Shown here in pieces: positions 1 through 61,100 of a stretch of DNA of 64,000 nt. Each line of letters begins with the position of its first letter. The first letter of the stretch is position 1. The DNA is from Sphagnum compactum (taxonomy: Eukaryota). The stretch lies in NCBI GenBank assembly GCA_965153455.1, contig OZ234493.1:19334213-19398212 (forward strand). The letters run 5' to 3'. The translations under genes and the position numbers were made by a program. The notes under the pieces are model-generated. The model saw nothing but the letters and a program-made list of their open reading frames with translations, was not told the origin of the DNA and searched no databases.

Positions 1-276
1 CAATCCGTAAGGAACTTGCCAAGAGGTTCCTCGATTTCGAGAAGAACGAAGAAGACGGTTGCGTACGGGCATCGATGGTGCTAAGGATTTGCTGTAGATT
101 GATTTAGTCTTTCGGTGCGAATTGCAAAAGAAAAAAAATTATAGGAAGAACGGTGGATCTTGAAGGAAAAGCAAGCAAGGCCCGTGGTGGTTGTGATTGG
201 ATTGCTTTTTTGGGTCTGAGGAAGGAAAGGCACGCTGGAGGATCACGTAAGGCACAGAGGAGGTGGTGGTGGAGGA

Positions 277-3200
277 TTGGGGAGGTCAAGTGGAGGTGCA
301 TTCGATGGAGGAGCGATATCTACACATAGCCAGGGCGGCAGCGCTCGACCCTTCGACCCCTCAGTCTCTAGTTTGCAAACAAGGCGAGAACAAACTTCGA
401 GGTACGATTCACAGCAATCCGACTCATACTGGTCGCGGTCCTACTCTAGCTATGGAAGGTCATGGCGAGGAGGAGGAGGAGGAGGATCTCAGGGACAGCA
501 GCAAGTAGCTGAATCTGGCATTGACTTCTACTGGTTTATTGGCTTCTTCGTGATCGTGGGTACGCCAGATTTTCTTTCCTCTTCAGCTTTTCCTTCTTTG
601 GTTGTGCGCTTCTTCCTTTTTAAGAGAACCTCTGGTCCCAGTTTCTCTGGGAGTGGGTTTGAGTCTAGTTCTTTCAATTTCTAAAGCCCATGGTCCTGGT
701 TCTGGCACATTTTTTTAACAAATTCAAGAACCTCTACTCCTGGTTCTACACACACACTACACACTCCCAAATGTCAGATCTTATAAGTTTTACAACAAAA
801 TTAAAACAGGGTTTTGTATAGGTAAAGAGTTCAACAACTAGTGAAAATTAATACTTCACTAAGTTCAGCCTACTTGCCAACTTTCTCAAGAAAGAATCAA
901 CTTGCCCACCTAAAGAACCTGAACATGTACTCAACAGTGGTTTCGTTTTCAGTTCCAGATCTTGTTAAAAGGCTAGTTCCTCGGTCCCATTCTTGTTCCA
1001 GTTCCGTGCCAGTTCAAGTCCAGGGCACAAGAACTTGAAGCCCTGAATTTAACACTACAAACCGGATACCCTCACAAGACTGGTTTGAAACCTTAAATAT
1101 TTGACCTAAACCAAAGCACCAATGCTGGTTCAAACCTGTTCGTGGATTGTTTTTGCTTGTTAGCTGAAATTTGTATTTCAAAGAATGGGAAAGATAATTT
1201 GCACACATTTCACACAGAATCATCATACATTTCAGTCCTGTTGTTATATCATTGTTGTTCTTTCAGCTGCTTGTAGATCTCCATTTTTACAAATGAATAT
1301 TGCACCCACTTTGAGTCCGCAGTGTCACTATGGATGCTTATCAGCCTGTATGGATCTCAAGTCTTGGAGATGGGATTATTTTATTCGCGGATCCTGAAGG
1401 CTAGTCCTTTGTTGGTGAAGGAGATCAAGGTTGGTGAGCATTTTCTAATTGCTTATGAATCCAATGCACATGTGCCATGTTTGCATGTGTTTCATGCTCA
1501 GAGTTGTGGTTTGGAAATGGTTCAATTGCTGGGGGTTCATAATGTTGGACCATCTTGTTGAGTATCATCATCAGTATGGTGCTTTTTTGTGTGTGAGGGT
1601 TCAGGTTCAGAATCTTGGAGAGCCTGGTCCAGTTGTGACTTCATTTGCAAAGCATCCAGGTTATGGTCATCCGTTCATTTCAGACGAAAAATTTAATGTG
1701 ACAGTCAATCCACGGTTCCACCAGGCATGTATCTCTCTGCCATAGTTTCTGTTTGGATTTTGTATTGGACTCTCCTGCTTTTCTTATATGATGGTGGACA
1801 ATTGAAATCACTTTGCATCCATCTGATCTTAAGCAGAATCTGATGTGGTAGTTGTGTTCAATTATCTGCAGCGATATGGATTCTGGCTGAACAAAGGCTC
1901 ATCTTTTACTCTCATATATAATGTGAAAGACTCTTGGGAAGATAGCCTGGTGCTGGCAATTGTCAGAGGTGAAAAGGCTGTTATCTTCTTTGAGTTTGTT
2001 TGAAGGCGGAGCATTCAATCATGTTACCCATGCACACTGCTGGTTGATAGTCAAATTGTAGCTGCAGCTGTGGCGAACTCCAATGACAAGGTATATCGCC
2101 TGTGAAAAATTCATGTCATCTATTATTGACAAATGAATGTCATTTGGTTTACTGTTGCAGGTGAAGATAGCTATCAGGAATGGACAAAGGATCCAAGTAA
2201 TGCTCAATTAGTATCAGCATGGAAGCGGGTTTATGGTAAGACATTCATTCAGGTAGTCTCCTGGAGCACATGGGATGAAGTTGTATATGTTTGTTCAGCT
2301 AATTGCCAATCTTTGTATGACCGATCAGAGCTCAGGTTTGGTGGGTTGGGAGTCTTTCATCAAACTTCTGTGCTTACCTGCCTATTCTCTCTATGCAACA
2401 TGCAGGAAGAGGTTCATTAAATTTTACAGTGACAGAAGATGATGACTACTATGTTGCCTTTGGGAACTTGAATGCTCATGAAATGAAGGTGGGTGGTTCA
2501 ACTGCCTATTTATTCCATATACAAGTTTACATGAGTGTGAACAAGTCTACATGAGAGTTAACTCATGCGATCTGCTTTGCTGTGGTATCTTTCAGAACAA
2601 GAGAAACCCAGATCTGTACTTAGCTCATCAATATTGTGGTTATTTTTGTGCCAGATTTCCTTCCACTTGAAGATGCATTGCATGATTTATTCTGTTCAAG
2701 ATGCGGAATCTCACTGTTCACTGGTGAATGGGAACGTTTGCCGGGTGCCTCTGTCATTGTCCAAATCCAAGCGGGTGCTAATATCTGCACCTGACAAGAA
2801 GCAGGTATTTGAACCCTGAGTACATATCTGAGTTTTTGAGGAACAGATATAATGTTTCCACCAGAATAATGAGTCTGTCTTGCAGTTGTTTGAAGCTTTC
2901 CTTATTGGGTGGTCTGTCCAATCATTGATTTCTGCATAACAGGATGTAAAACTGCATTTATGAGTAAGGGCATTCTTATTCTGGTAGCCTATATCTGTGA
3001 ATTTTTGATATTCCATAACCAGCCTGCCACTACTAAAGCCTTTTAGTTGGGGTCATCTACAGGATTGGACTATGTATATTTGGTGTTGATTCACACTGTT
3101 GTGGTTGTGTATACAGCATGGTGTTGATGTTTGGAAGGTGAAAGTCTCATACATTCCACGCTGGATTACCTACTTCATATTGTGGAGTACGTTGTTTTTC

Positions 3201-3991
3201 CCATCCTGGACCTGAGGGAAATGCTTTGGTTTGCACTACTCAGTTTTTGTTGATTCAAGTTCTTCTATGATATTTTGACAACAATCCTGAAATTTCCCCA
3301 TTGGAGACGTTTGAAGCAAGTAAATTTGATTTCAACTGGGCTGAGGTTGCAGGTGTAATAGGGCTTGGACTATTAGGTATGGAGCTACGTAAACAAGGCA
3401 GGCAAGTTTCCACAAGTCAACGAGAGGTGGTTCCTCTCACATCTATAGAAGGAAATGAAAGCCCTGAAAATTTGGCAAGAGAAAGCCAGTCTGCTGACTT
3501 TTCACCAGCTTTAGGATCTGGAAACTTTCAAGGGGGACATGGAGAGCAATCTTTGGAGCAGCTGTGCACTGTGTGCTTGGATGCACCTAAAGACAGTTTC
3601 TTTGATCCTTGTGGCCATCGCTGCACATGTTACACCTGTGGCATGAGGTACGTACCCATGATCCAATGGCAACAAATGATTCCTTTTGCAGATGTTCTAG
3701 TTGTTTGCTGGTGGGGTTATAATCAGCTAGGACATGGGTAATTATCCAGCTGCATTTGCCCATGGCTCAGCAGTGCATGTTGTGAGTTCATTGTACTGTG
3801 ATCAGAAATCATCTGGACCACTGCTGTCGCACAAGGACAGTTTTGTTTCTCTATAAGTTTTCTGTTTGGAGCTTGTGGGCTGACCAAGAAACCATAACCG
3901 CTTGAATTGCAGGATACAAAATGGAGACATTGCAAGATGTCCCATTTGCCGGGAAAATGTGCGTGCTGTCCATAGGATTTATGACTCATAA
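277..3991 (+). CDS. APD-like (ABERRANT POLLEN DEVELOPMENT family) transmembrane RING E3 ubiquitin ligase, 10 exons; true start codon not identified
   Basis: Phase-consistent exons: ?-559, 1323-1429, 1605-1724, 1872-1968, 2161-2235, 2406-2488, 2655-2804, 3117-3186, 3353-3647, 3913-3991 (TAA). The spliced product has a TM segment FYWFIGFFVIVVSLWMLISLYG, the motifs WLNKGS, EWTKDP, YYVAFGNLN and VSYIPRWITY that I recall from Arabidopsis APD proteins, and a C-terminal RING CTVC..PCGHRCTCYTC..CPICR. Confidence 0.9.
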
Positions 3992-6680: not shown

Positions 6681-7284
6681 ATGTGTGGATGTGAACAAAA
6701 GTCATGATGATAATAATGGGGGACGCCAGAGGGAAAAAGTAAAGCGCGTTTGACAAGTCTCAAGCTGACATTGCATATTCCATCCTCAATTACGAGTAGA
6801 AAATAGAGACATGTGTTCCACAAAAGAAAGTAATCAATTGTTCAGTGGCCAAGAAGAAATCGGTAAAGCGTGTATGCGAGAGTCTGAAGAGTCACGGCAA
6901 AACCCTTCTAGAAGTTTCTGGGCGAGGAGAAAATGAAGAAGAAGAAACATCTGCAAGAAAAGTCGAAAAGGAGTGAGAGAAGAGTGTGAGAATTCCAGGG
7001 AGATCGTGAAGAGGAAAGCGGTTGATGTTTTTTGGGGAGATCTAGTGGAAAGATCAGCTTAGCTTGTGGGAATCTGTGATGTGTGAGGGACACCCATCAT
7101 ACCCTGTGTATGCTAATGGGATGGCAAAGGATTTGTAGCAGGTTTTATGGGACCAAAAGGTTAAGAGAGAAATATTGATGAGAGCGGTGAGCAAAAGGAA
7201 TTTCAGTAGTGCGAAATATGGGAAATTCAGATGGCCTCAAGGGAAAAGGAGTTGATCTTTCACAAGGGCCCCCAGAAAGAAAGA

Positions 7285-7592
7285 GAGATGTTGTGCGGAT
7301 CCCTGCTGGGATTGAGACACCTTTGGTCCCCGCTGAAAATGCTCCTTCAAGCTCTGGATGTCACAGCCATGTGGTGCTTCTTCTTGATCTTATCATGAGC
7401 TTTCTTTGCACTGTTTTTTCTTGGGCTTTCCCATGTAAAGATGTTATGCAGATACCTGCTGCGATTGAGACACCTTTGGTCCCTGCTGAAAATGCTCCTT
7501 CAAGCTCTGGATGGCACAGCAATGTGGTGCTTCTTCTTGACCTTATGATGAGCTTTCTTTGCACAGTTTTTCCTTGGGTTTCCCAAGTCACA
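7285..7592 (+). repeat. 153-bp tandem duplication in the 5' part of the HNL gene
   Basis: GATGTTGTGCGGATCCCTGCTGGGATTGAGACACC.. at 7287 recurs as GATGTTATGCAGATACCTGCTGCGATTGAGACACC.. at 7440. Confidence 0.9.
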
Positions 7593-10500
7593 TGTTGAAG
7601 TTTGATTTTTCTTTGCTTTTTTTCATTTTGTTTGGGTGTTGACAATTTTCCTTGACCCTTACAACCATGATAGCTTATTGTCCTCACAAAGCATCAGGAG
7701 AAGGAGGTCTAGTTCAGATTTGAACTCCCAACCAACAGCTTCACAACCATACCTTTTAGCCACTAGGGTACCTGAACTCCCCAATCGTTTACAAGCTTCC
7801 TTGTCATACATTTTTACTTTGCTTACTTTCCAGTTTGGTTGTTTAGATAAAAACAATATGAAATGATGTTTAAAACAATACGAAATGGAGTCATCACTAT
7901 AGCCTCTTACATTTGGTTGGCAACTCATTTGCTATAACAAGTATAATTGGTGAAAGGGAAATTTGTCAAAATTTGGCATTGACTAAAATTATGTTGAACT
8001 TGTAAGGATTGGAACTTTCATTATAGATTATGAGTTAAGTTCAATGTGTAGTCTTGATCCAACAACCTAAAGCAAATTATTAAAATGCTCTTGGACATTC
8101 TTATTGGGTTTGTGTCCCAATTCCTTAGCTGTGGGAGGCCTTAGAGGCCCAAATACCAAACTAGATGGCTAAGCAAATCAACCCAAACTTGAAAGAATCC
8201 GATTCTTAGCATTAACTTTTATTGTTTGGCATACATTCCACCTACTATGTAACAACATTCACTTATTGAACTATGTTTTGAAACTTTGAGGTCTATGACA
8301 CATGTGAATGATCTTCATTTGTTAGTCATGCAAGATAGATTTGGTATTTTCCAATTCATTTATTATTTTGATCTTGTTAAACTTAATCTTTTCAACCAAT
8401 TATTGCTTTTATCTAACTACTATAATTTGTATATTGCATTTTTCTTATTTCATGTATAGTCAAATAATTTCCAAGAGACATTTAAAGAATTGTGTTCACT
8501 CGTTTTCTTTTCTTTGCAGGAATATCTAGTGCATGATTTAAATCCCTCTTGCAATTCCAATAATGCAAACTTGACCATCATCTTTTTTCATGGGATTGCT
8601 TTTGGCACAAATGATGAATGGAAGGAAACATGGACAACATGCCGGACTAACAATAGAGAAGAGTGCATATGTTGGCCGGAAAAGTGGCTACCCGAAGACT
8701 TGAACAACAATGTTCGAATTTTATCATTGTCCTATGATTCCAACATTGTGGCAAGTGTTCACAATGACGTGACTGAAATCGGCAAAAACCTTGTTCAAAG
8801 TTTGATTACAAATTCAAGGTGTGACCATCTCCTCTATTTATGGACACGTTAATTACTTCTCCTTGTGTACATTAATGATAATTGTTTATATCTTTAGAAT
8901 TTCTTACATGTTTTGCACAAGTTAATTGTTCATGTGATACACACCAACAAGTTTCAATTTACTTGAATTGTTAGATTCATGTAGAAGAAGATAAAATGGG
9001 GTTAAGGCAAATGTTCTTGTTTGAAGATAATAACAAAGTCTATGTTCATATTATAAGTTCATGGTACAACTAGTTTGGTTTTGATGGCAATTTTGAGTTC
9101 GCGTTTTTTTAAGCTTTATCTAGGGTAATGCAATTGAATTAAATTAAATTAAATTGATACATGTGTAGAAAGTTTTCATCCATTTCATTGTGAAAAAATT
9201 ATTTTAAAAAAATGGTATATATATATTTTTTCATTTAATTTTTTAAAATTTCAACTATATTTCCAACGTAACACATAGAAGATGAGTTGTACATTAACAC
9301 AAGAATGTAAACACCTACATACTTGTGCATAATAATTGTTTTACCAAAACATGGTTGTCACATTTTTTAGGTGTATTAATGGATTCCATAAACAACATAT
9401 GACAAGCAAATCAATTATGAACTTATGGCTTAGGTCATGTGTGAATTGGAAAATTGCCCCCAAGTATAATAGGATAAATTTGTCATTCTAATACAATGTT
9501 GATAATGGAATTTTGGTGCATTGTTGAATATTTTGTAGTTATCAATCCCTTTGGGATGGACCAGTGACATTAGTTGCTTATAGTTTTGGAGGTCTTGTAC
9601 TCAAAAGCTTGGTGGTTGAAGCTCACAAACATGTATATCAACGGCCAAAAAATGGTTTGGATGATAAAGTACACAAATGTTGTAAGACATTTTTGAACAA
9701 TGTTAAAGGTGTAGTATTTTATAGTGTACCACATGTTGGTGACACCCAATCTCTATCAAATTATTTCATTTGGAAACATCAACAAATCAACACATTGAAC
9801 AAGTATGCAACCCAATCTGGGTTTTTAAAAAATTTAGAATCTTTCAATTCACAAATGGAGCACCTTTCAACGGATTTTTAAAATGCCATTCATGAAAACC
9901 TCAACATTTATGCATTTAGCGAAGGATTACCACTCGACAAAAATTGGGTAAGATTTCATTTCATCACATTGAAAGTTATCCAACTAGGTTCGTTAATTGA
10001 ACATTTTTCGTATTGTCAAAACTTGTGTGGGATCATGTACTCAATACTTCTACATATATTAATGTGGTGAATGGGTCATGTGTTTTATGAACTTTGTTAC
10101 ATGAAAAACTATTGATGGAAATGAAATTTGATTGATTTCAAACATCAAAAAATAAATTTAAATTTTCCCTTCATCAAATCAATTCCATATAAATATTTAC
10201 AAGGAAAATCATAACATCATTAAAGCATGTAAGATTCATGAGATTAAAAACCAATAACTTTGTGATGTATTTATATAAGGTTTTTTGCCAAAAGGTTGAA
10301 GGAAATTACTTGTACACAATATTTCATTATTACTCAAACATTAATAGTTATTAAACTATAATTTCCACCACCATTTGGTTTATAAGTTCAAGCATAAGTG
10401 AACAAAGAAGTCAATGAATTCCATTAACTTAATCTTTTGCACATGCAGGGAATTTTAGTGCCACATGCCTCAGCTATTCAGTTGTCAAACAACAACCATT

Positions 10501-12249
10501 ACATAGTTGAGGATGCTAATCACTTGACAATTTGCAAGCCACCAAACAGAGATCATCCAAGCTATTCTTTATTGTTAAAATGTTTGAGAACATGTATGGA
10601 GGTAAAAACATCAAATCTAAATCTTTTGACTTCATATATGTTCATGTACTTTGAAACACATTAGGTCATAGCACACTTGATGTGTATCGCATATGCAATG
10701 TCATATATATTGGTTATCAAATAAGAAAGATAACATATAAATGACCTATATTTTGTGAATTTTGACAGAAAAATATATTACTTCCAAGTTTGCCATGTCA
10801 TGAGGTGGCGTTGATCGACAAAGCACAAGACATAAACATCTTGTTACAAAAGCAATCTATTGTTGGTTTGGTTGGAATGGGTGGGATTGGAAAAACCACT
10901 TTGAGCAAAAAATTCTATCATTTGTTCCACAACGAATATGACAAATCTAGTTTTTTGGAGGATGTGAAATCAAAGGACGATATTAACGATGTCATTAAAC
11001 AACTCCTACATGATTTGTGTGGCAAAAGGTTATGCGAGGATGAAAATGTGAATGAAGCCCTTGACAAAATTAGACAATGTATGATATCGAAGAAAGTGTT
11101 AGTGGTGGTGGATGATGTTGGCAAGGCAGAAAACCTTACATCCTTGCAACTTCTCATTGAAAAGGGTGCCAAGAATGCAACTTCTAAAAGCAGAGTACTT
11201 GTGAATTGTCGAAATTGGCAAATTCTAAAATCTCATGTAAGTGAAGATGGAAAAATGGTCATGAAATCTTTTGAGGAAGAGGAAGCAAGAAAACTCTTTA
11301 TGTTCCATGCATTTGGTAATGCGAATCATGTTCCAACAAAGGATTTCAAAAATATATGTATGAAGATTATAAAAGCTTGTGGGGGACTCCCTTTAAGTCT
11401 TAAATATTGGGTTCTTTTTTGTGCAATACTAAAAAATTAGAAATGTGGGAAGGTGCATTGAGCAAATTGAAAAGTGGGAAAAGTTTGACAGGGGGCAATG
11501 ATAATGAAGAGCTTTGGAGTGTTTTAAAGATATCATATGAGGACTTGGATAAACAAAATCAAAACATGTTTTTGGATATTGCCTGTTTTTTTGGTGGTTT
11601 AAAAATAAGTATAATTTGTCGAGTGTGGAGTGGAGATTATGAACACCCAAAGTTTGAATTACAAAATTTACAACATAGATCTTTAATTGAGTGGGCAGAA
11701 GATGGAATCTTGTACATACATGAACAATTACAATACATGGGTCGAAATATTGCAATGGAACTTCCAATTATGAATCGATTTATATGGAAATCAAATAAAT
11801 CAAATATATATTTACAAAAGGATGAGGTTGTCACTATACTATTTCGATCCTATAATTTTATTTTGATTTTTTATGATTTTTTAAAAAGTCCAAGACCAAA
11901 TGTTTTAATTTTGAATCTTGATTTTATAAATGAATGTTTTTCTAATAAAAATTGAGATTAGGATGAAAATTTTCTAATACAGATAATCCTTTTTCTTTTC
12001 ATTTCATGTGATAGGTGGTGGAAAATTTAGAAGGCATGTCATTGAAAAAATGTGTAAATTTGCCTACATTGTCCCAAATCGGCTCAAAGGGATTTTGCAA
12101 CCTTAGGTTGGTTGACCTAACAGAAGCTTCACCAACTATAGTCGAAAATTTCATCCAAGGGCGAAATTTGAATAACGTTAAGTGGTTGTGCCTCAAAAAA
12201 TGCATGATTCAAAAATTACCAAGTAATTTATTTTATTGTTTACAATTAC

Positions 12250-15200
12250 AAGTACTTGATTTGGCACAATGCCAAAGTTTGGAAAAAATACCTTCATCCA
12301 TTGGCCAATTGAATGCACTCCAAGAGCTTGATTTGCGAGGGTGTTCCAAGTTGAAAAAACTACCTTCATCTATTGGCCAATTGAATGCACTCCAAGAGCT
12401 TCATTTATCATCGTGTTCCAGCTTGAAAGAAATACCTTCATCCATCGGCGAATTAAATGCATTCCAAAAGCTTGATTTGTCATGGTGTTCCAACTTGAAA
12501 AAACTACCTTCATGTACTGGCCACTTGAATGCACTCCAAGAGCTTGATTTGCGAGGGTGTTCCAAGTTGAAAAAACTACCTTCATTTATTGGCCGATTAA
12601 ATGCACTGCAAAAGCTTCATTTATCATGGTGTTCCAACTTGAAAGAACTACCTTCATTTATCAACCAAAAGAATGCACTCCCAAAGCTTGATTTGCAACG
12701 GTGTTACGACTTGGAAGAACTACCTTCATTTATTGGCCAATTGAATGAACTCCCAAGGCTTGATTTGTCATGGTGCTCCTACTCGAAAAAACTACCTTCA
12801 TCTATTGGCCAATTGAATGCACTCCAAGAGCTTGATTTATCATGGTGTTTCAACTTGAAAGAACTACCTTCATCTATTGGCCAATTGAATGCACTTCACA
12901 AGCTTAATTTGTCAGAGTGTTCGAACTTGAAAGAACTATCTTCATCTATTGGCCAATTGCATGCACTCCAAGAACTTCATTTACAAGGGTGTTCTAACTT
13001 GAAAGAACTACCTTCATCTATTCCAAAACCTTGTTTTGGAAGGGTGTTGGAACTTGAAAGAACTACCTTCTTCTATTGGCCAATTGAATGCACTCCAAAA
13101 GCTTGATGTGCAAGGGTGTTTCAACTTGAAAGAACTACCTTCATTTATTGCCCAATTGAATGCACTCCCAAAGCTTGATTTGCAAAGGTGTTCCAACTTG
13201 AAAAAACTACCTTTATCTATTGGCCAACTTCGTGCACTCCAAAAGCTTGACTTACAATGGTGTTCCGAGTTAAAAGAACTACCTTCATCTATTGGCCAAC
13301 TGAATGCACTCCAAAAGCTTGATTTGTCATGGTGTTCCAAGTTGAAAGAACTACCTTCATCTATTGGCCAATTGAATGCACTCCAAAAGCTTGATTTGAA
13401 AAGGTGTTCCGAGTTGAAAGAACTACCTTCATCTATTGGTCAATTGAATGCACTCCAAAAGCTTCATTTGCAATGGTGTTACAACTTGGAAGAACTACCT
13501 TCATCTATTGGCCAATTGAATGCATTGCACAAGCTAAATTTGTCAGAGTGTTCGAACTTAAAAGAACTACCTTCATCTATTGGCCATTTGAATGCACTCC
13601 AAGAGCTTCATTTAACATCGTGTTTTAACTTAAGAGAACTACCTTCATCTATTGGTCAATTGCATGCACTCCAAGAGCTTCATTTATCATTGTGTTACAA
13701 CTTGGAAGAACTACCTTCATCTATTGCCCAATTGAATGCACTCCGAGAGCTTCATTTGCAAAGGTGTTCCAACTTGAAAGAACTACCTTCATCTATTGGT
13801 CAATTGAATGCACTCCAAGAGCTTCATTTGCAAGAGTGTTCCAACTTGAAAGAACTACCTTCATCTATTGGCCAATTGAATGCACTCCAAAAGCTTGATT
13901 TGAAAAGGTGTTCCAAGTTGAAAGAACTACCTTCATCTATTGGCCAATTGAATGCACTCCAAGAGCTTCATTTATCATGGTGTTCCAACTTGAAAGAACT
14001 ACCTTCATCTATTGGTCAATTGCATGCACTCCAAGAGCTTCATTTATCATTGTGTTACATTTGGAAGAACTACTTTCATCTATTGCCCAATTGAATGCAC
14101 TCCGAGAGCTTCATTTGCAAAGGTGTTCCAATTTGAAAGAATTACCTTCATCTATTGGTCAATTGAATGCACTCCAAAAGCTTCATTTGCAAGAGTGTTC
14201 CAAGTTGAAAGAACTACCTTCATCTATTGGCCAATTGAATGCAATCCAAAAGCTTGATTTGAAAAGGTGTTCCAAGTTGAAAGAACTACCTTCATCTATT
14301 GGCCAATTGAATGCACTCCAAGAGCTTCATTTGCAATGGTGTTACAACTTGGAAGAACTACCTTCATCTATTATGCATTTGAATGCACTACAAAAGCTTG
14401 ATTTGCAAGGGTGTTTCAACTTGAAAGAATTACTTTCATCTAGTGGCCAATTGAATGCACTTGAAGAGCTTGATTTACAATGGTGGTCCAATTTGAAAGA
14501 ACTACCTTCATCTATTGGCCAATTGAATGCACTCCAAGAGCTTCATTTGCAAGGGTGTTTCAACTTGAAAGAACTACCTTCATCTATTGGCCAATTGAAT
14601 GCAGTCCAAAAGCTTCATTTGCAAAGGTGTTCCAACTTGAAAGAACTACCCTCATCTATTGGTCAATTGAATACACTCCAAAAGCTTGATTTGCAAGGGT
14701 GTTTCAACTTGAAAGAACTACCTTCATCTATTGGTCAATTAAATGCACACCAAGAGCTTGATTTACAATGGTGGTCCGAGTTGAAAGAACTATTTTCATC
14801 TAGTGGCCAATTGAATGCACTCCAAAAGCTTGATTTACAATGGTGGTCCAATTTGAAAAAACTACTTTCATCTATTGGCCAATTGAATGCACTTCAAAAA
14901 TTTGATTTGTTAGGGTGTTCCAACTTGAAAAAACTACCTTCATCTATTGTCCAATCAATCTACTCCAAGAGTTTGATTTGAAAGGGTGTTTCGAGTTGAA
15001 AGAACTACGTTCATCTATTGGCGAATCAATGTACTCCAAAAACTTAATTTGTCAAGGTGTGACAACTTGAAAGAACTACGTTCATATATTGGCCAATCAA
15101 TGTACTACAAAAACGTAATTTGTCAAGGTGTGATAACTTGAAAGAACTACCTTCATCTATTGATGAATTGAATGCACTACAAAAGTTTTATTTATAAGAC

Positions 15201-15620
15201 TTCTTCAACTTGAAAACATTGTGAAAAATGTACATTCATCTATGGCCAAATTGAATACATTCAAAGTGTTTCATTTGTCAAGGTGTTCCAACTTGAAATA
15301 AATATTTTCATCTATTGGTCAATTGGGTACATTCCAAAAGCTTCAATTGTCAAAGTGTTCTAACTTGAAAAAACCATTTTCATCTATTGGTCATTGAGTG
15401 CACTTGAAAATCTTGATTTGTGTGAACGTTTCAACTTGCAAAAATTACTTACATGTACATTGGCCAATTAAATGCACTCCAAAAGTTTTAGTTGTGTGAA
15501 CTTAATTTGTACGAGCTTGCAGGAATTACTTACGTTTATAGGCCAATTTAATGCATTCAAGGAACTTAATTTGTTAAGGTGTTTCAATTTGAAATAATTA
15601 CCTTCATCTGTTGCCAATTG
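12250..15620 (+). repeat. 72-bp (24-aa) tandem LRR array, roughly 45 units
   Basis: Consensus LKELPSSIGQLNALQ(E/K)L(D/H)LxxCSN, with near-identical DNA units AACTTGAAAGAACTACCTTCATCTATTGGCCAATTGAATGCACTCCAA. Confidence 0.95.
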
Positions 15621-41044: not shown

Positions 41045-41969
41045 ATTTATATTATTCTCAACTTTTTTGTAAATCTCAAAACATATTTCTTCCAAATCAC
41101 AAAATATATGGAATAAAAATATTAAATCTTCAAGAATACTTTATTCCTTGAAATAATATTTAAAAATAAATTAATTAGTCAACAGACATGTGTTGAAATG
41201 GCCAAGGTACTACAATACACTTCTTGGACAGGCTTATGATTCCGAACTTCATTTCAAATTGAAGGAGCACCCTCCTACCTTGGCCACTTTGACATTAATT
41301 ATATTTTTCAGAAATGTTGAAATTTTCAAAAAACAATTCTTCCAGATCACAAAATATACTGAAAGAAAACATTGAATCTTTAGGACTATTTTATTTCATG
41401 AAGTAAATCTTTCAAAATTAATTAATTATTCAACGAACATGTGTTGAAATGGTCAAAGTACTACAATACATTTCTTCAAGGGGCTTATGATTGAGAACTT
41501 CATTTTGGAATGAAGGAGTACCCTCCTACCTTGACCACTTTGATGTTAATTATATTATTCTCAGAAATTTTGTAAATTTCAAAAAAAATCTTCAAAATCA
41601 CAAAATGTATGGAACAAAAATATTGAATTTTTAATGAATATTATATTCCTTGAAATAAATATTTCAAAATTAATTAATTATTCAACAAACATGTGTTGAA
41701 ATGGCCAAGGTACTATGATACATTTCTTCGAGGGACTTATGATTGAGAACTTCATTTCGGAATGAAAGAGTACCCCTCCTACCTTGGCTGCTTTGACATT
41801 AATTATATTATTTTAAGAAATGTTGAAATTTTCAAAAAATATTTCTTCCAAATCACAAAATATAGTGAATGAAAATATTGAATTTTTAGGAATATTTTAT
41901 TTCATGAAATAAATATTTTAATTGATTAATTATTCAATGGACATGTGTTGAAATGGCCAAGGTACTATG
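41045..41969. repeat. ~252-bp tandem repeat, about 3.7 copies
   Basis: ACATGTGTTGAAATGG(C/T)CAA(G/A)GTACTA recurs at ~41186, 41437, 41689 and 41941. Confidence 0.9.
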
Positions 41970-43030: not shown

Positions 43031-43587
43031 TATACGTAGAATCTGCTGCTGCTGCTCTATTTACATGAGCACGTCCAAAAGCTCTTTCTGAAAAGCTTTG
43101 GTACTTACAGCAAATTCTTGTTCGGCTATAGTAGACTCACGAGTGTATGTAGCTTGGAGAAGACAGGCAGAGAGCCAGAGAGAGTTTTGGGGTGGTGAAG
43201 CATGGGGGCATCCAACAAGTTCTTCAAGACATTGGTGACGGTGAGGCGGATTGTGAAACCAAGTACCAGTAGTGTGGAGAAAGATGACAATGTAAGTCTG
43301 TAGACCCAGCTGTTGCTTTCTGCTCAAAGAGACTTCCAACACTTTCCTGCCTAATTGAGCATCCAGAAAATTTCTGGTGCCTTGTTGATGTGGAAAAGAA
43401 GAAAGCTTGTTAGGGGGTGTTTAGGGTTTTCTCAAATAGCATTGGTTCAGGATTTTTGGACACGGAGCTTGATGGACCTGGGCCTTCTTAGGTTGGCCTG
43501 ACCTTCTTGTACGTAAGGGTTTGGTTGGTCTGAGGCCTCTGGAATTGGGGTGTGGGTTAAGAAAGTTAGGGTTTTGGGTTTTGGATA

Positions 43588-44454
43588 ATGATGAATGCCA
43601 CGGTTTTCGACGCTAAAACATGGGAATGGAACAAGGACTCGTTGACGATCATGGAGATGCAGGTAGTTGAACTCCAGGCACTATGTACACGCTATAACCT
43701 CAAGCCTGCCAAGACCAGCAAGGCAGCTGCTGCAGCAGCCATCGTCAACTATCTCATGGTCCCTAGGGCTGATGTGGTGACGAAACAGGATGTGCACAAT
43801 GTTATTGAGGTCACTATGGAGCAGGTCGCAAAAAACATTCTGGCTCCAGCAATGGAAGCTAAGATTGTGACCGTAACTAGCCAAGTCGAAACGCTGCAAA
43901 ATAAGGTAGATGCGATGGCTAAGAGCTTTGATACCATGCAAGACAGTGGGGAGAAGTGGAAGGAGGTCGTGGGCAAGAAGGTTGACAAGGTTGTCAACAA
44001 GGTGGACCGGGCAACGGATGTTGACCTAGTCAAGGCCAGGGAAGCAAACATCCGGGTCACCGGGTTGACCATGAGCAAGGGGGAAACCTCAAAACAACTT
44101 ATGGAGTTGGTGCAGACGGAGCTGCTTGACAAGCTGAAGGTTGCTGACCATGTGCAGGTGCAGAAGGTGCACCGGCAGATGCCGTTAGGGCGATTGGATA
44201 AGGCCAATGACAAGGCACCGGCAGTCATCATCACGCTGGCATCGGTACATGACAAGCTCATAGTGTTGCGCGCTCGCAAAGGCTTGTAAGGCACTCAGCT
44301 TGGGCTCGATGAGGACTTGACTCCTGCTCAGCAAGCCCAGAAACGAGCTGCTTGGGCCACCTTCAAGGAGGCCAAAGAGGCTGGAGAACGGGTCTACTGG
44401 CGTGGGGCCGATCTCTACATCAACCACAAAGTCGTAAATTCTCCTACTGCATAG
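43588..44454 (+). CDS. LINE ORF1 (SAP-like N-terminus, coiled coil, RRM-CTD type), with a premature TAA at 44287
   Basis: Contains NIRVTGL..VIITL..KLIVL. After the internal TAA the frame continues GTQLGLDEDLTPAQQ..AKEAGERVYWRGADLYIN, a typical ORF1p CTD (EDLT), ending at TAG 44452-44454. Confidence 0.8.
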
Positions 44455-47400
44455 GGGGGCGGGGGCCAGAGAGACTTGTGTGTGTGCCTATGGAACATCC
44501 ATGGGGCCGCTATCACAAAGCTAGAAACACATGAACATCTGCTTGACCTATTTCAACATGTTGACGTTGTTGCTTTGACAGAAACACATCACTTCCCGGG
44601 CGATACATTCCCGGTCTTACCGGGGTTCTACTGTTTTGATGTTGCCAGGCCTGTGACTCCACAGGGTGTCATTCAAAAGCACAGTGGAGGCATTGCGGTA
44701 CTAGTCAGGGAAACATGGGCAAATAGTACTGTTGTTTGGAAGACTGCAAGGGATGGGATTAGGATTTGGCTGCGCTTGGGCAATGCTTTCCAAAGGCCTT
44801 TGTTCCTGTGCATAATATATGCTGCTCCACAAGGCTCGCCATATGCGGACAGCAGCCTGTTTGAATACATACGCCAAGAGGTTGGAGAAGCCATGAACTT
44901 AGGCAGTGTGCTTCTTGCTGGGGATTTCAATGCAAGGACAGGCACAAACATTGACTTCATTGATTGTAGTCAACTAGCAGATGTGCTGTTGGTGCCACAG
45001 GCCATTGAGGACACCCTGCCCAACGATATGTTGGAGCGCCAGAACCGCGACACCGTCACGGCTGGTTGGCATCGTGAATTCCTCGATCTCTGCAGAACTA
45101 CTGGGCTATTCATCCTCAATGGCCGCACACCAGGAGACATATCAGGGGAGTACACATGCCTATCCAATAAAGGTTTTAGCACTGTGGACTATTTTCTTAC
45201 GACAGCTAACCAATTAAAGGGTGTCAAGCGCTTAGAGGTTAACTGCGATGAAAAGTACTCAGGCCACAAAGATGCGCACTCTGATCATAGACCATTGGTA
45301 CTTACAATCACACAACAGTGGCAACCCCCTCCTGTTCAGCAAAAGGCGATCAAACACCTACCACGTTTCAAATATGACACTACCAAAGCAGCCGAATTTA
45401 GCAAAAGTGTACAGCATAACATCGATGTCTGGGCAAGCCCAGATGTACTCGATGCATCTGACGTACAAACAACAATCAATCTGTTACAACAGTGCATCAC
45501 ACAATCTGCAGAAGAAGTGTTTGGAAATAGACAAGTGGCTTTAGGAAAAACAATAAAACATAGTCACAAACCCTGGTTTGACACAGAATGTCGCCAGACC
45601 AAAAGCCAGTTTGCTAAATTGTCACATGCACACCCAGATAGGCAGGTCAAACTTAAGCAAATGAAACAATTGTACAAAAGAAAGAAACGTGCTTATGATG
45701 TACTCAAGGCTAAACAACTATGTGGTTTAGCGAAGGCGGATCCTGCAGCATTCTGGAAGCGGTACCGTAAGCGCGCTGAAGGTGTCAATGGCATCACCAG
45801 CGAAGCACTCAGGGATGGCTTCCAGCAATTGCTTCAGCCTCCGGCGGCACTAGCCACAACAGGAGCCGTGACAGGTGCCGCTATTCAAGCCCAGGTGGTT
45901 TCCTTTCCACCCCATGGTATTGATTGCGAACAGTTGAATGTTGACATCACACTAGTTGAAGTACAACAAGCGTTCAAAAAGCTAAAACGACACAAAGCTG
46001 CAGGCATTGATGGCATCAAACCAGAGTTCCTTTTGGATGCGGCTGTTGCCTTGCAACAACCACTATTGATTGCTTTTAACAAAATTCTGCGTGAGGGCTA
46101 TTGTGAATCACTCTCTGTTGGGATCATACATGCACTATACAAAGGGGGTGACTACAGTCAGTTTGACAATTACAGGGGGATCACAGTAGGACCAGTCTTA
46201 GCCAAGGTGTTTGCAATGATTCTTGAGTCTCGCATCAGTCAATGGGCGGAGACTAATGATTTACGCGCAAAAGGACAGGCTGGTTTCAGAAAGGACTTTA
46301 GGACAACAGATAACTTGTTTATTCTTCGCACTTTGACCGAACAAGCCAGATTTCAGAAAAAGAAGCTATACACTTGTTTTGTGGACCTCAAAAACGCCTT
46401 TGATACAGTACCAAGGGACCTGTTGTGGCAGGTGCTGGAGGGACTTGGCATCAGTGGGCGGGTACTGGAATGCTTGCGTTCCATGTACCATCAAGACCAG
46501 GCCTGCCTGCACCATCCAGAGGAGGGGCTCACGCCCACTTTCCTCTGCCGCATCGGAGTGAAGCAAGGATGCCCCCTCAGCCCGCTCCTATTTGGCCTCT
46601 TCATAGATGGCTTAGAGAAATGGCTGAATGCTTTGGAGGGTGATGCACCACCAATGTTGGATCAACTAGCTGTTCGCTTGCTTTTGTATGCAGACGACTT
46701 AGCTCTCATGTCACACACTCCTGGTGGATTGCAGAAGCAATTAGATGTCTTGCAGGCTTTTTATTGTGAGCGTCAGTTGACTGTGAATGTCAAGAAAACC
46801 AAGGTTGTTGTGTTTGAAGCACACAAGTCTGTGTGTCAGGCTTTTCAGTATGAGGGTGAAACTATAGAGCAACTAAACTCTTTCAAGTATTTAGGTGTTG
46901 AGCTGCATGGCACAAAAGGTATGCAAGCTGCAATACAACAATTAGCAATGTCTGGGAAAAAGGCAGTTTTTGCATTGCAGCGTAGATGCGCAGAACTGCG
47001 CATCTTTGACCCAGCATTACAATGCCAGTTGTTTGATGCACTAGTCAAACCAGTGCTTAGCTATGGGTGTGAAGTATGGTTAGACCACATGGCACGCGAA
47101 CAGTTAGAGGTGGTTCATCGGGCTTTTCTAAAGTTGTTGCTAGCGGTCAGCACCACGACATCCAGTTACGTCGTGCTGGCAGAGTTTGGCAGGTTTCCCC
47201 TAGAAATATATTGGTGGCAACAGACCATGCGCTTTCTCTCACGTGTCAGTTCTAAGGTAGACTCAGATCGCATGCTCAAGCTAGCTTATGATGTACAGCT
47301 GCAGTTGCTTGCAGCCAGGCGAAAAGTCTCACTCGGGAACCAGAGTGCTGTGGGTAGAAAAAGCCGATTGCCTGCTTGCTGGCTAGCACAAGTAGATGAA

Positions 47401-47924
47401 CGACTGTCGACGTACAATTTGTGCATCGATCGCAATCAGCTGCCACCATGTGCTCGCCTCAAGCAGTTGGCTGAAAGGCAATACATTGTACACCATCAAG
47501 TGGCTGCAGCTGACTCTAGCAGGGTGAGAGCCTATTTGGGGTTGAATAGCTCAACACAGTATGGGTACAAAGAATACCTCTCCAGGGTAAACAATGCACA
47601 GCTTAGGAGAAGCTTGGCACATTTTCGTTGTGCGAATCACAAGCTACAGATTGAGCTAGGAAGGCAAGCCAAGCCAAGCCAGTGAAGGTGCCAGTGCAAC
47701 AGCGTTACTGCAAATTGTGCAACTTGGGTGCGGTTGAGGATGAGGACCACTTCTTGTTGGTTTGCCCTACCTATCAAAATGTTCGGGAGAGGTTTAGAGG
47801 TTCATTGCCACTAACTGCCATCACACCTTTGGCTGAATTGATGAGCTGTCAGCAGCAAGGCATCCTTGCTAGATTCTTAGTGCAATGTCAGAAGGTTAGA
47901 TCTGAATTGCTTCATCAGACTTAA
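44455..47924 (+). CDS. LINE ORF2: AP endonuclease, reverse transcriptase and CCHC zinc finger; one frameshift near the 3' end
   Basis: EN motifs WNIHG, LTETH, IYAAP, AGDFNAR, TVDY, SDH. RT motifs YRGITV, QAGFR, FVDLKNAFD, GVKQGCPLSPLLF, YADD, FKYLG. (AAGCC)3 at 47666-47680 shifts the frame; removing one 5-bp unit joins it to the 47682-47924 zinc-finger ORF. Confidence 0.95.
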
Positions 47925-50329: not shown

Positions 50330-50940
50330 CCTAAACCACAAAAGACCAATGTATATAGAGTACCCTATTTAGGTATTGCAACCTATATCCTAAAACCAGT
50401 CCTTATTTCATGGACCTTTATGCAGGTATTGCATAATTTGGTAAATGTTATTTGAAAATTGACTAAATCAAGACCCAATCCCATAATGCAAAACTCGAAT
50501 ATGAAAATGGTATATCAAGTGCAAGAAATATGTAAGTCAATATACGAGTATTGATTTAAACACAAGTATTGCATTTTCTTCACAAAAAACCAATCCCTCT
50601 TTTGCGGACCTACATGCAGGTATTGCATAATTTGGTAAATGGTCTTTGAATATTAACTAGTTCAAGACCCAATCCCAAAATGCAATACCCCAATGCAAAA
50701 ATGATATATCAAGTGCAAGAAACATGTGAATCAATATTTGATTATTGACCTAAACACAAGTATTTCACTTTGTTCACAAAAAACAAGTCTAGCTCTTTTG
50801 CATACCTATATGTGGGTATTGCAAAAATTGGCAAATGTTGTGATGTTGTTCATTTTGGGACATGTGTGTAAGTATTGTTTTTGTGGGGAAAACCCAATCA
50901 CTATTTTTAATGCCTATATGCAGTTATTGCGAATGTGGGT
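50330..50940. repeat. ~195-bp tandem repeat (x3)
   Basis: GACCT..ATGCAGGTATTGCATAATTTGGTAAATG at ~50412, ~50605 and ~50800. Shares the GGTATTGCA motif with 38300-38640. Confidence 0.75.
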
Positions 50941-56084: not shown

Positions 56085-56765
56085 TAATATCAATTTTTAA
56101 TCAAATAAATTTTTTGAAGTTAAATAAAAACTTTCAAAATTGAAATGTCAATTTTCATATTCAACTAACAATATTCAAAATTAAAATGTCCATTTTAAGA
56201 CTCAATTAATAATTTTCTGAATTGAAATATTATTTTGAAAATCTAGAATAATAATTTGGAATTCAAATTTCAGCTTTCAAGTCAAATAATTTCTTAACAT
56301 TTAAATTTAAAACTTCAGAATTCAAATATCAAATTTCAAGTTCAAAGTAAAATATTTCAAATCAAAATGTCGATTTTTAGACTCAACTAATTTTTTGAAT
56401 TGAAATACTAATTTTTAGACTCAAAAATAATAATTTAGAATTCAAATATCAATTTTTAGATCAAATAATTTTTTTGAATTTAAATAACAGTTTTCAAAAT
56501 TGAAATGTCAATTTTCAGATTCAAATAACAATATTCAAAATTGAAATGTCCATTTTTAGACTCAATGAATAATTTTCAGACTTGAAGTATTAATTTTGAG
56601 AATCCAAAATAACAATTCGAAATTTTCAGAGTTGAAATATAAATTTTAATATTAAAATTAAAATATTCAAAATTAAAATGTCTATTTTTATAATTTTCTG
56701 AATTGAAATATCAATTTTCAGATTTGAATAACAAATTTCAAAGTTCAAATATTTATTTTGAGATT
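56085..56765. repeat. AT-rich hierarchical satellite (~21-bp subunits, ~360-bp higher-order period)
   Basis: AAAATTGAAATGTCAATTTTCA.ATTCAA.TAACAATATTCAAAATT.AAATGTCCATTTT.AGACTCAAT at ~56136 and ~56496. Confidence 0.7.
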
Positions 56766-56811: not shown

Positions 56812-57103
56812 ATACATTAAAATACAACCCGATGTCATTGTAAAATACCTTTAGGATGCAACTAATTTGGTGACTATTGCAATTAATTTGACATATCAAC
56901 CTATTAATGGATGAAAGTAAATATAAAATCGATCCAACCAAGAGGATGAAAATTTTAATGATTGCAATATAGTTGTGAAAATGATCAAAATAGTTGAAAT
57001 TTCGTCTTGTAGTTGCAAATATTTCAAAATGTAGTCGCAAACAACTATAAATCGCATGTAGTCGTAAATGGAGTGGTTACATTTTGGCTGATTTCTACTA
57101 ATG
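56812..57103. mobile_element. Probable CACTA-like non-autonomous element truncating the third NB-ARC fragment
   Basis: The minus-strand end CATTAGTAGAAA (cf. CACTAGTAGAAA) abuts NB-ARC codons G-T-L-Y. Internal GCAACTA/TAGTTGC/GTAGTCG repeats. Confidence 0.45.
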
Positions 57104-57428
57104 TACAAGGTTCCATCTTTTGCCCACTGGATTAAAAATATATGTTGTAAATTTTGTAATTCAAACTTTGGGTTTAAATAATCACCATTCCACACTTGAC
57201 AAATTGTACTTATTTTCAAACCACCCAAAAAACAAGCAATATCCAAAAACATGTTTTGATGTTGTTTATCCGAGTACTAATAAAAAATCTTCAATTTACT
57301 CTCAAGCTTTAGTTATCATGGCCCCCGGTGAAACTTTGCCCACTTCTCAATTTGTTCAATGCACCTTCCCATATTTCCAATTCTTTAGTATTGCACAAAA
57401 AAGAACCCAATACTTTAAGACTTAAAGG
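57104..57428 (-). pseudogene. Third HNL fragment (NB-ARC from GLPL to just before MHD)
   Basis: PLSLKVLGSFLCNTKELEIWEGALNKL..MFLDIACFLGGLKISTICQVWNGDYLNPKFELQNLQH..WAKDGTLY, paralogous to 11390-11715. Confidence 0.9.
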
Positions 57429-58169
57429 AATCATTTTCGCTCACCATCTATCATGGAACCTAGGATTTGAATGTTTTTGACAAATCATCAATTAACTTGA
57501 TAGTTTTCAAAATCTAACTATTGGGGTCTTTCAAAGAGAAAGAACATATTTTCATCATTGTGGCTTTGTTGGCTTTGACAACCTCAATAAATATTTGTTT
57601 CTTAAAACTAAAACCATGCATACCAATGTTTCTAGAGCATGGCACAATGGTTGCTGTCATGTTTACTAAGTAACACTTGCAATTGAGGTGTTGACATATT
57701 ATGTAAGTGTGCCCAACATTCGTTTTTTGCCTTTCAACTTGTAAATGTAGTTGAAAGACAATCATGCCGTGCATTTGCAACACAGACATTAATCATAATG
57801 TCAATGTCATCCATCCATGTGTGATCTATCATGCATCACTATGTTTTGTAATTGACCAAAATAGTTGAACATGGGACTTTCTTAGTTGACACACCACCCT
57901 AGGAGGTTTGATTATAGAGCGTGTAATTTTCCAAGTTAACGTTTAAATTAAAATTCAATTGTAGACCTTGAGGGTGTTAAGAATATTCCATGAGCTCCAA
58001 AATAGTTGGGATTTGCCTTCATTTGTCCACCAAAAGAGTAGGCAACTCAATTTATTTGGCAATTGTGAATAATGTTTTAAATATTCAAAAAATTACAATT
58101 GAAACATAGTCGAAAATGACGTCAAGTCAAAGATGGGTTGGTTGAAAAACATGGGTTTTGTACTACTGA

Positions 58170-61100
58170 TTTAGTTGGCAATAGATGAAGGTGTTTCTTT
58201 CAAAATTGAAACACCTTAACAAATTAAGTTCCTTGAATGCATTAAATTGGCCAATAAACATTCATACATTGCTATAACTAAGACTTTTGGAGTGCATTTA
58301 ATTGGCCAATGTACATGTATGTAATTCTTGCAAGTTGAAGGATTCACACAAATCAAGATTTTCAAGTGCGTTTAATGACCAATCAATGAAAATAGTTTTT
58401 TCAAATTGGAACACCTTGACAAATGAAGCTTTTGGATTGTACTCAATTGGCCAATACAGGAAAGTAATTATCTCAAGTTGAAACACTTCGATAAATGAAG
58501 CACTTCGAGAGCATTCAATTAGCCACTAGATGAATGTACTTCTTTCATGATGTTTCCAAGTTAAAGAAGTTTTATAAATAAAGATTTGGATTGCATTCAA
58601 TTGCCCAAAAGATGAAGGTAGTTATATAAAGTTGGGACACTCGTGGTCCAAACAAAGCTTTTGGAGTGCATTTAATTGGCCAATAGATGAAGGTAATTCT
58701 TTCAAGTTGGAACACCCTTTCAAATCAAGCTCTTCGAATACATTCAATTCGCCAATAGATGAAGGTAGTTCTTTCAAATTGGAACAACCTTTCAAATCAA
58801 GCTTTTGGAGTGCATTCAATTGCATAATAGATGAATGTAATTATTTCAAGTTGGACCACTCCACAAAATAAGTTGTTGAAATGCATTCAATATGGCCAAT
58901 AATGAAGGTAATTATTTCAAGTTGGAACACCCTGATAAATCAAGCTCTTGGAGTGCATTTAATTGGCCAATAGATGAAAGTAGTTTTCTCAAGTTACAAC
59001 ACCATATCAAATAAAGCTCTTGGAGTGCATTCAATTGGCTAATAGATGAAGGTAATTCTTTCAAGTTGGAACACCCTTTCAAATCAAGCTTTTGGAATGC
59101 ATTCAATTGGCCAATAGATGAAGGTAATTCTTTCAAGTTACAACACACTTTCAAATCAAGCTTTTGGAGTGCATTCAATTGGCCAATAGATGAAGGTAGT
59201 TCTTTCAACTCGGAACAACCTTTCAAATCAAGCTTTTGGAGTGCATTCAATTGACTAATAGATGAAGGTAGTTCTTTCAAGTTGGAACACCTTGACAAAT
59301 CTAATTCTTGGAGTGCATTCAATTGGCCAATAGATGAAGGTAGTTCTTTCAATTTGGAACACTCATATAAATCAAGTTTTTGGAATGCATTCAATTGGCA
59401 AATAGATGAAGGTAATTTTTTAAAGTTGAACCACTTACACAAAATAAACTCTTGAAGTGCATTGAATTGGCCTATAGATGAAGATGGTTTTTTCAAATTG
59501 GAACACTTTGATAAATCAAACTTTTTGAGTGCATTCAATTGGCCAATAGATGAAGATAGTTCTTTCAACTCGGAACAACATGACAAATCAAGCTTTTGGA
59601 GTGCATTCAATTGACCAATAGATGAAGGTAGTTATTTCAAGTTGGAACACCGTGACAAATCAAACTTTTTGAATGCATTCAATTGGCCAATAGATGAAGG
59701 TAGTTATTTCAACTTGAAACAAATAAAGCTCTTGGAGTGCATTGAATTGGCTAATAAATGAAGGTAGTTTTTTCAACTCGAAACAAATAAAGCTCTTGGA
59801 GTGCATTCAATTTGGCCAATAAATGAAGGTAGTTCTTTCAAGTTGGAACACCTTGACAAATCAAACTTTTGGAGTGCATTCAATTGGCCAATAGATGTAG
59901 GCAATTTTTGTAAGTTTCGACACCTTTTCAAATCAAATTTTTGGAGTGTTTTCAATTGGCCAATAGATGTAGGCAATTTTTGCAAGCTCCCAACCCTGCT
60001 AAATCAAATTCTTGGAGTGATTTCAATTGGCCAACAAATGAAGGTATTTTTAAAAAACTTTGGCATTGTTCCAAATCAAGTACTTGTAATTGTAAACAAT
60101 AAAGCAAATTACTTGGCAACTTTCAAATCATGCAATTTTTGAGGCACAACCATTTAACATTACTCAAATTTTGCCCTTGGATGCAATTTTCCACTACAAT
60201 TGGTGAAGCTTTTGTTAGGTCAACTAACCTAAGGTTGCAAAATCCCTTTGAGTCGATTTGGGCCAATGTAGGCAAATCGACACATTTTTTCAATGACATG
60301 CCTTCTAAATTTTCCACCACCTATCACATGAAATGAAAACAAAAAGGAATATCAATATAAATGAACATTTGATCCTAATACCAATTTTTATTAAAAAAAC
60401 ATGTATTTATAAAATTAATATTCAAAGTTAAAACATTTGGTTCTGGACATTAAAAAAATCATAAGAAATCAAAATAAATTATAGGATTGAAATAGTATGG
60501 TGACAACATCATCCTGTTGTAAAAACAAAATTGATTTAGTTGATTTTCAAACCACCCAAAAAATAAGCAATATCCAAAAACATGTTTTGATGTTGTTTAT
60601 CCAAGTACTCATTAAAAATCTTCAATTTCCTCCAAAGTTCTTCATTATCATGGCCCCCAGTGAGACTTTGCCCACTTTTCAATTTGTTCAATGTTCCTTC
60701 CCAGATTTCTAATTTTTTAATATTGGAGAGAAAAGAACCCAATACTTTAAGACTTAAAAGGAGCCCCCCCACAAGCATTTATAATCTTCATACATATATA
60801 TTTGAAATCTTTTGTTGGAACATGATTTGCATTACTAAATGCATGGAACATAAATAGTTCCTTTGCTTGCTCTTCCTCCAAAAATTTCATGACCACTTTT
60901 CCATCCTCATTTACATGAGATTTTAGAATTTGCCAATTTCAACAATTCATAAGTACTTTGCTTTTAGAAGTTGCATTCTTGGTAGCCTTATCAATGAGAA
61001 GTTGGGAAAATGATAGAATTTTTTGCACAAAATGGTCTTCCCAATCCCACCCATTCCAACCAAACCAACAATACATTCCTTTTGTAACAAGATGTTTATA

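Follow-up and report, generated by a model that had tools for sequence, protein, structure and literature searches.

A disabled hydrolase-NLR gene in Sphagnum compactum and the homogenised, focally variable LRR arrays of its family

The window analysed here is a stretch of 64,000 nucleotides from Sphagnum compactum (contig OZ234493.1). From position 7218 on the forward strand it carries a gene which, by its exons and domain matches, is of the Sphagnum α/β-hydrolase–NB-ARC–LRR type, with a long array of 72-bp repeats as its LRR exon. The copy in the window is dead, with a stop in the hydrolase, a frameshift in the NB-ARC and at least three lesions in the array. We are fairly confident of the following explanation as a whole: the gene belongs to a large Sphagnum hydrolase-NLR family, the LRR sensor of this family evolves by concerted evolution together with diversifying selection, and the window copy was recently disabled. 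The recombination-driven recognition repertoire that an earlier note had proposed for this DNA is supported for the family, in which units turn over and variation is focused, but not for the window locus.

The repeat array and its variable positions

Tandem Repeats Finder placed the 72-bp array at 12282–15485, with 10.3 + 34.1 copies, and the LRR array described in the earlier note is thus real. Followed to 15597, it comprises 46 periods, which agrees with the ~45 units claimed, although the interval to which they had been assigned, 12250–15000, holds 38. Exon 6 starts with a non-repetitive, degenerate LRR lead-in of 91 residues (12015–12287, +). The regular LRR units follow at 12288–14933 (+), 35 of them clean and two with deletions (17 nt after 13022 and 1 nt near 14060), and a decayed tail of about nine units with stops and frameshifts extends over 14934–15597 (+), its last units being collinear in close paralogues. 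The units were delimited by cutting at a conserved anchor, and their consensus is a 24-residue plant LRR. An AlphaFold model of 13063–14058 (single-sequence, pLDDT 91.5) gave a regular solenoid in which unit positions 13–17 form a β-strand.

The units had been described as near-clonal, which overstated their likeness: the mean pairwise DNA identity of the 35 clean units is 85.1% (range 70.8–98.6%), none of the 595 pairs is identical, and only ten reach at least 95%. The array is one of high internal conservation rather than a clonal one. A three-unit block occurs in it twice, as units 20–22 and 25–27. The variation is focused, as the earlier note had claimed, and not uniform along the unit. 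Codons 13, 15, 17, 18, 20 and 21, located on or just after the β-strand, represent 25% of the codons and hold 94 of the 156 amino-acid departures from the consensus (60%). No other of the 134,596 six-codon sets equals this one in departures, the set having been picked partly post hoc, with 13, 15, 17 and 18 as the x positions of xLxLxx. The combinatorial character of the strand residues was likewise confirmed, with 29 distinct combinations in the 35 clean units, and all ten strand motifs quoted in the note are present in the unit list. Alternate strand residues of LRRs face the concave binding surface.

We also observed that in the stretch of unit codons 2–10, which includes a 10-base palindrome, the codons for Pro, Ser, Ser, Ile and Ala are near-invariant at their third positions within arrays (0.02–0.04). 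Small RNAs might target this stretch, or exchange might favour it.

Unit turnover and selection across the family

A genome search, in which 150 of 232 candidates were scored, yielded 56 full-length NB-ARC matches at least 77% identical, including that of the window, and 60 of the 149 other scored matches were retrieved as paralogues. Members of the family lie on many chromosomes. All named proteins among the best 120 NCBI NB-ARC matches are from Sphagnum, which identifies the window gene as a peat-moss hydrolase-NLR and, together with the domain searches, bears out the bryophyte NLR family suggested earlier. In the ESM Atlas, the first match (0.93) was to a plant cluster with recognition below threshold and was uninformative. 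The annotated proteins P0038 and P0041 were considered as cross-species orthologue arrays; their exon 1 is 99% and 94% alike to that of the window gene and their unit orders differ. They were left uncounted, their orthology being uncertain: other NB-ARCs match that of the window gene better, and the annotated proteins appear truncated within the array.

The number of units per array ranged from 8 to at least 76 across 62 loci, two arrays (L072 and L048, each with at least 76 units) running past the retrieved stretch; L072 is open throughout what was retrieved, with an LRR exon of at least 1916 residues. Taking as open any gene whose frame runs uninterrupted from exon 2 into the array, with no splice-site notes, we counted 22 open genes among the 60 paralogues, with 15–76 in-frame units; the other 38 did not qualify. 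Further units lie behind the first stop in 19 of the 22 open genes, and stop-bearing units rise from 6/225 in the first tenth of the arrays to 103/182 in the last, which suggests that the reading frame normally ends inside the array; a spliced last exon is a possible alternative.

The sister of the window gene, L031, lies ~160 kb away in inverted orientation. Outside the array it is 1.3–1.8% diverged, and the lesions that disable it are other than those of the window copy. Between the two arrays, 29 of 40 units are collinear. Units 1–19 and the last units correspond save for one duplication, whereas units 20–33 are rearranged. Since both copies are broken, their units may have been rearranged neutrally, and after the copies had died. 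In 14 sister pairs, collinearity, called from a heuristic unit alignment, extended over 21 of 25 units at 0.4% divergence (L061/L067) and mostly over less than half of the units at 2–3.5%. By array fifth it amounted to 40/115, 20/110, 29/110, 30/110 and 49/106, being best at the ends. A repeated three-unit block was present in 20 of 54 arrays, that of the window included. All these array comparisons are between paralogues in one assembly, and long repeats may be misassembled.

Linkage within arrays pointed to exchange on a finer scale. The r2 between variable sites fell from 0.164 at 1–3 nt to 0.044 at 41–71 nt, with 0.03 after shuffling (49 loci; arrays under 20 clean units were left out of the linkage and singleton counts, and units with indels out of the counts). 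Four gametes were found in 124 of 229 site pairs of the window array, a count to which recurrent mutation may also contribute. Differences between collinear sister units fell in the six variable codons in 54% of cases when the allele was already a common one in the array and in 16% when it was novel. In a sign of homogenisation, 884 of 2065 units had their nearest counterpart within their own array, with 2% expected; 856 had it in another locus. A module pool common to distant paralogues was looked for and not found: none of 1677 locus pairs at least 4% apart had a three-unit block in common, and across 1756 locus pairs more than 6% apart there was one identical unit, one base from the consensus, against a shuffled mean of ~3. 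The patterns of unit turnover and linkage are those that unequal exchange, together with short conversion, leaves inside an array. The shuffling claimed in the earlier note holds in so far as unit number and order vary among paralogues; it appears to take place within arrays and not from a pool of distant genes.

In terms of selection, counting methods rather than a codon site model were used, and four of the 62 arrays, with fewer than 12 clean units each, were dropped from the pN/pS comparison. In all 58 that were left, the array-wide pS was lower than pN at codons 17–18, and pN at exposed positions was 2.5–3 times pS (medians 0.41–0.49 versus 0.16), whereas framework and convex pN were below pS; convex positions are solvent-exposed as well, yet they are conserved (pN 0.08). 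First-position diversity reached 0.47–0.56 at codons 13, 15, 17 and 18, compared with third-position diversity of at most 0.31 at scaffold codons. In 682 in-frame units of the 22 open genes, the ratio of shared to singleton variants was 2.38 for exposed replacements, 0.60 for synonymous variants elsewhere and 0.16 for framework replacements, in tables that omit alleles occurring exactly twice. We must also note that synonymous variants in exposed codons were enriched among the shared ones (83 shared, 41 single), which linkage and multi-hit codons, or slower homogenisation at exposed codons, can explain. The test within classes was not significant (p 0.34), and as the units are not independent, p-values come out too small. 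Diversifying selection on the exposed residues is likely but not proven, and selection for novel residues at positions 13, 15, 17 and 18 of the strand is supported but model-dependent.

Neutral repeat turnover with purifying selection only, in which the exposed positions are merely unconstrained and changes of unit number non-adaptive, would account for the non-significant test at exposed codons, for the many broken copies (38 of 60, in addition to the dead window copy), and for counts of distinct alleles per codon that in the window are little higher at exposed codons. It is nevertheless unlikely, given the excess of exposed pN over pS in every array, the first-position diversity at codons 13, 15, 17 and 18 above the third-position diversity of every scaffold codon, and the conservation of the convex positions, which are equally open to solvent. 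Also improbable is a further reading, in which the arrays are a fast heritable receptor generator that works without a dedicated enzyme. Mitotic recombination in arrays of 20 to 76 or more units, in long-lived haploid clones, would supply new specificities; the units would spell out, by their order, a modular code along a solenoid of several turns, sensor length would be tuned by where the first stop falls, and the tail would be a local reserve of units.

A dedicated diversification system, either hypermutation of the strand codons or exchange of cassettes from pseudogene donors in the manner of VLRs or antigenic variation, is very improbable. The numerous pseudogenes share the unit type and common alleles move between units, as such a system would have it. 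Moreover, the hydrolase exon 3 looks to have been exchanged between paralogues, judging by distances: in the window copy it is 5.2% from L053 and 9.5–11.5% from L032–L036, while the NB-ARC shows the reverse. That exon 3 is closer to other paralogues (L053, L048, L065) than to the neighbours by NB-ARC suggests chimeric genes. On the other hand, 17.5% of singleton mutations fell on the four strand codons, with 16.7% expected and no dominant type of change, so that no targeted mutator is needed, and targeted hypermutation was rejected on this even distribution. Nor does cassette exchange fit the scarcity of identical units and the lack of common three-unit blocks among distant loci, or the smooth decay of linkage, which gave no sign of fixed cassettes at a resolution coarser than site-by-site tract borders. 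VLR-like features were thus not found in the family, with singletons even and no sharing with donors.

Our preferred explanation is concerted evolution together with diversifying selection. The sequences show that units are duplicated, lost and reordered by misaligned recombination inside single arrays, mostly in mid-array, and that conversion tracts shorter than one unit recombine the variants already there. Point mutation feeds in new variants evenly along the unit, with purifying selection maintaining the Leu/Pro/Ile/Cys scaffold. By analogy with known NLR biology, the exposed residues of the open paralogues would lie on the concave face and contact a ligand, either a pathogen one or one of modified self; binding would switch the NB-ARC, activate the hydrolase and trigger cell death. 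Array instability often kills copies, in a process of birth and death, and the frame usually closes within the array, with a decayed tail behind the stop.

The window gene, its lesions and its surroundings

Five exons with AG/GT borders precede the LRR exon, and two of the junctions were seen in RNA reads of relatives. Exon 1 (7218–7523, +), assigned by its translation, starts with ATG and MGNSDG; its donor is indicated by family RNA reads, in which GT..AG joints connect 7523/7525 with 8519/8520. Many family members start with MGNS, a possible myristoylation site. A 153-bp duplication at 7286–7585 surrounds the exon 1 donor, and exon 1 contains one copy. Splicing at 7523 retains one hydrophobic stretch, VVLLLDLIMSFLCTVFSWAF, in the leader, a possible membrane anchor, which is also found in P0038, P0041, P0073, P0081 and P0107 and is absent from other family members. 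Exon 2 (8520–8818, +), 90–92% alike to annotated Sphagnum proteins, encodes the first part of the α/β-hydrolase domain. Alone it gave no Pfam match and no PDB match under E 0.09; its joint to exon 3 (8816–9537) was present in RNA reads. Exon 3 (9539–9947, +) contains the hydrolase core with the AYSFGG elbow, a motif found in 38 of 39 matching proteins, and a premature TAA at 9879–9881. Its match to PF05057 (DUF676) is weak, with E 3.6e-4 and 20.5 bits against a cut-off of 20.3; three of four full-length relatives lie just above this cut-off and the fourth just below. The hydrolase ends in exon 4 (10449–10601, +), delimited by its splice borders, with DANHLTICK, a motif present in 44–45 of 46 matching proteins, the His of which we take to be the likely catalytic one. 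Exon 5 (10769–11826, +) encodes the NB-ARC (PF00931, E 4e-29), with P-loop, kinase-2 and GLPL motifs, and a winged helix of the ROQ1 type (WHD_ROQ1; PF23282, E 1.5e-11), after which the LRRs follow. At RNBS-B the family reads VNCR, and at the MHD position IHEQL in 73 and IHDQL in 23 of 109 proteins; the usual NLR motifs there are TTR and MHD.

The lesions are distributed over the whole gene. TAA stands at 9879 in the hydrolase, a codon that is AAA in 47 of 59 aligned loci. One base is missing at ~11404, just after GLPL, which shifts the frame of the NB-ARC; this base is present in L031 and in 42 of 48 RNA reads. Within the array, 17 bases are missing after 13022 and one at ~14060, and further shifts start from ~14950. 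With the stop and the frameshifts, a full-length receptor is not encoded by this pseudogene member of the family; the earlier reading of the locus as an NLR gene had overlooked these lesions. No transcription of the window copy was evident in the RNA reads placed on it. In run X24, 198 of 8029 reads were at least 99% alike to it, and the 42 of 48 reads that carry the missing base imply that the reads derive from relatives. None of the public runs, which are short contigs from other plants, contained half of the sampled sequence words.

It is very improbable that misassembly of a long repeat produced the lesions and the rearranged middle, and that the true gene is open. In favour of this reading, the TAA at a junction of a T-run and an A-run recurs in L034 and L084, no public run spans the lesions with the letters of the window copy, and tandem repeats are difficult to assemble. 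Against it, there are at least five independent lesions, two of them outside the array and one a 17-base deletion, no two units of the window are identical, which makes reads placeable, and the arrays of L061/L067, at 0.4% divergence, were assembled nearly collinear. The Lys codon at that junction is TAA in three non-sister loci (the window, L034 and L084), and the second paralogue in the window reads similarly near 62060; the shared TAA is either a lesion that has recurred or a systematic error in base calling.

This second paralogue of the family, more decayed, lies at 58179–63440 on the reverse strand, with 88% DNA identity over 3 kb. Its array at 58284–60046 (Tandem Repeats Finder) has ~24.5 units, its NB-ARC and WHD carry deletions, and its exon 1 would fall past the end of the window. 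Behind its array, an extra copy of the segment from GLPL to the winged helix (57100–57431, −) contains the part deleted from its exon. Elsewhere in the window, a LINE-type retrotransposon at 43570–47685 (+), with GC above its surroundings, has two open frames, an ORF of 239 aa and an endonuclease–reverse transcriptase frame of 1076 aa (PF03372, PF00078), and is probably young. A multi-exon gene at 220–3990 (+) ends in a C3HC4 RING finger (PF13920), and AT-rich tandem repeats occur at 41076–41967, 50412–50837 and 56086–56759, with periods of 252, 194 and 179, respectively. A search for structured RNA in the window gave no Rfam match at gathering score.

Relation to known receptors and meaning

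Among solved structures, the array best matched 7crb, an NAD+ hydrolase which we take to be RPP1 (E 4.5e-48), and ROQ1 (7jlv). With these top matches and its WHD_ROQ1 domain, the window gene leans to the TIR side and resembles the angiosperm TIR-NLRs RPP1 and ROQ1, which differ in having a TIR instead of a hydrolase and LRRs that are degenerate in alignments.

The three-domain architecture of the window gene, α/β-hydrolase, NB-ARC and LRR, is that of the bryophyte HNL class (Xue et al. 2012, PMC3352924), termed Hyd-NLR by Chia et al. (2024, PMC11218826), who named Sphagnum hydrolase-NLRs. The HNL introns described by Xue et al. (PMC3352924) are of phase 0 inside the hydrolase and before the NBS, with one more behind the NBS; compared by pattern and phase, introns of the window gene may correspond to these, and it has two further ones, one of phase 2. 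It differs in being a pseudogene, and in its family's long homogenised LRR arrays, which the excerpted HNL accounts do not mention. No description of Sphagnum LRR arrays was found in the literature covered, mostly the main text of open-access papers; a moss case may be contained in the supplements of Chia et al. or in Fig. 8 of PMC13449251.

In terms of repeat evolution, the family resembles fungal NLRs of high internal conservation (HIC), such as Podospora HET-E/HNWD and the sesB-like genes. According to the parts of PMC4986451 and PMC13449251 used here, their repeats are 80–100% alike with about four hypervariable binding-face positions, units are gained, lost and shuffled, and sesB-related hydrolase N-terminal domains occur; fungal NLRs are without LRRs (PMC4986451), and HIC NLRs are also reported from plants, animals and bacteria (conclusion of PMC13449251). 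HIC is defined there by Psim of at least 0.7 (PMC13449251) or by 85% identity over 100 aa (PMC4986451). By our own calculation, which did not use T-REKS, Psim is 0.81 in the window array and 0.71–0.89 in 58 of 58 arrays, above the former threshold, and the best 100-aa identity in the window array is 87% between two pieces and 70–82% within pieces. The Sphagnum arrays resemble the fungal ones in repeat conservation, in their few hypervariable binding-face positions under probable diversifying selection, as found by counting methods on a predicted fold, and in unit turnover, with repeat number and order varying among paralogues. In contrast to the fungal genes, the repeat is an LRR and not WD40, ANK or TPR, and arrays reach 76 or more units; identical repeats shared by divergent genes, as in the Podospora NWD family, were not found, and the Sphagnum singletons have no RIP-like excess of C-to-T. 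Allorecognition is a feature of the fungal systems.

Tomato Hcr2 genes (Cf-2/Cf-5) provide a plant parallel: according to the sections of PMC7468133 and PMC10515242 available, their near-identical 24-aa LRRs are repetitive in DNA, and intragenic recombination has produced 25–38 LRRs, tied to recognition specificity. Recombining 24-aa LRRs, repetitive in DNA and varying in number, are common to both. Hcr2 proteins, however, are receptor-like proteins of the cell surface, anchored at the C-terminus and conserved at both ends, and identical LRRs are found between Hcr2 loci, whereas the Sphagnum family is one of intracellular NLRs on many chromosomes, its reading frame mostly ends inside the array, and its distant loci gave no such sharing. 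The contrast with degenerate angiosperm LRRs drawn in the earlier note fits RPP1 and ROQ1 but is too sharp, given Hcr2 (PMC7468133, as far as consulted) and angiosperm LRR proteins with 86–88% self-identity through block duplication; among the 120 LRR matches listed, 10 have at least 85% self-identity across 100 residues, for the most part through longer blocks, and several of these 10 are angiosperm proteins.

The mechanism is thus known in kind from fungal receptors and tomato Cf-2-type genes. The window locus itself does nothing, and the family is of moderate importance, as a plant NLR lineage in which fungal-style homogenised repeats with a hypervariable face are the rule (58 of 58 arrays). 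Because the scaffold is regular and the variable positions number four to six, LRR specificity and the rates of repeat turnover can be measured directly. In the text of Chia et al. used here (PMC11218826), pathogen-induced NLR immunity is still undemonstrated in non-flowering plants, and kinase and hydrolase N-terminal domains showed potential immune-related activity in an initial survey, which is no test of the window family itself. The diversifying signatures of the family indicate where NLR immunity in non-flowering plants may be sought.
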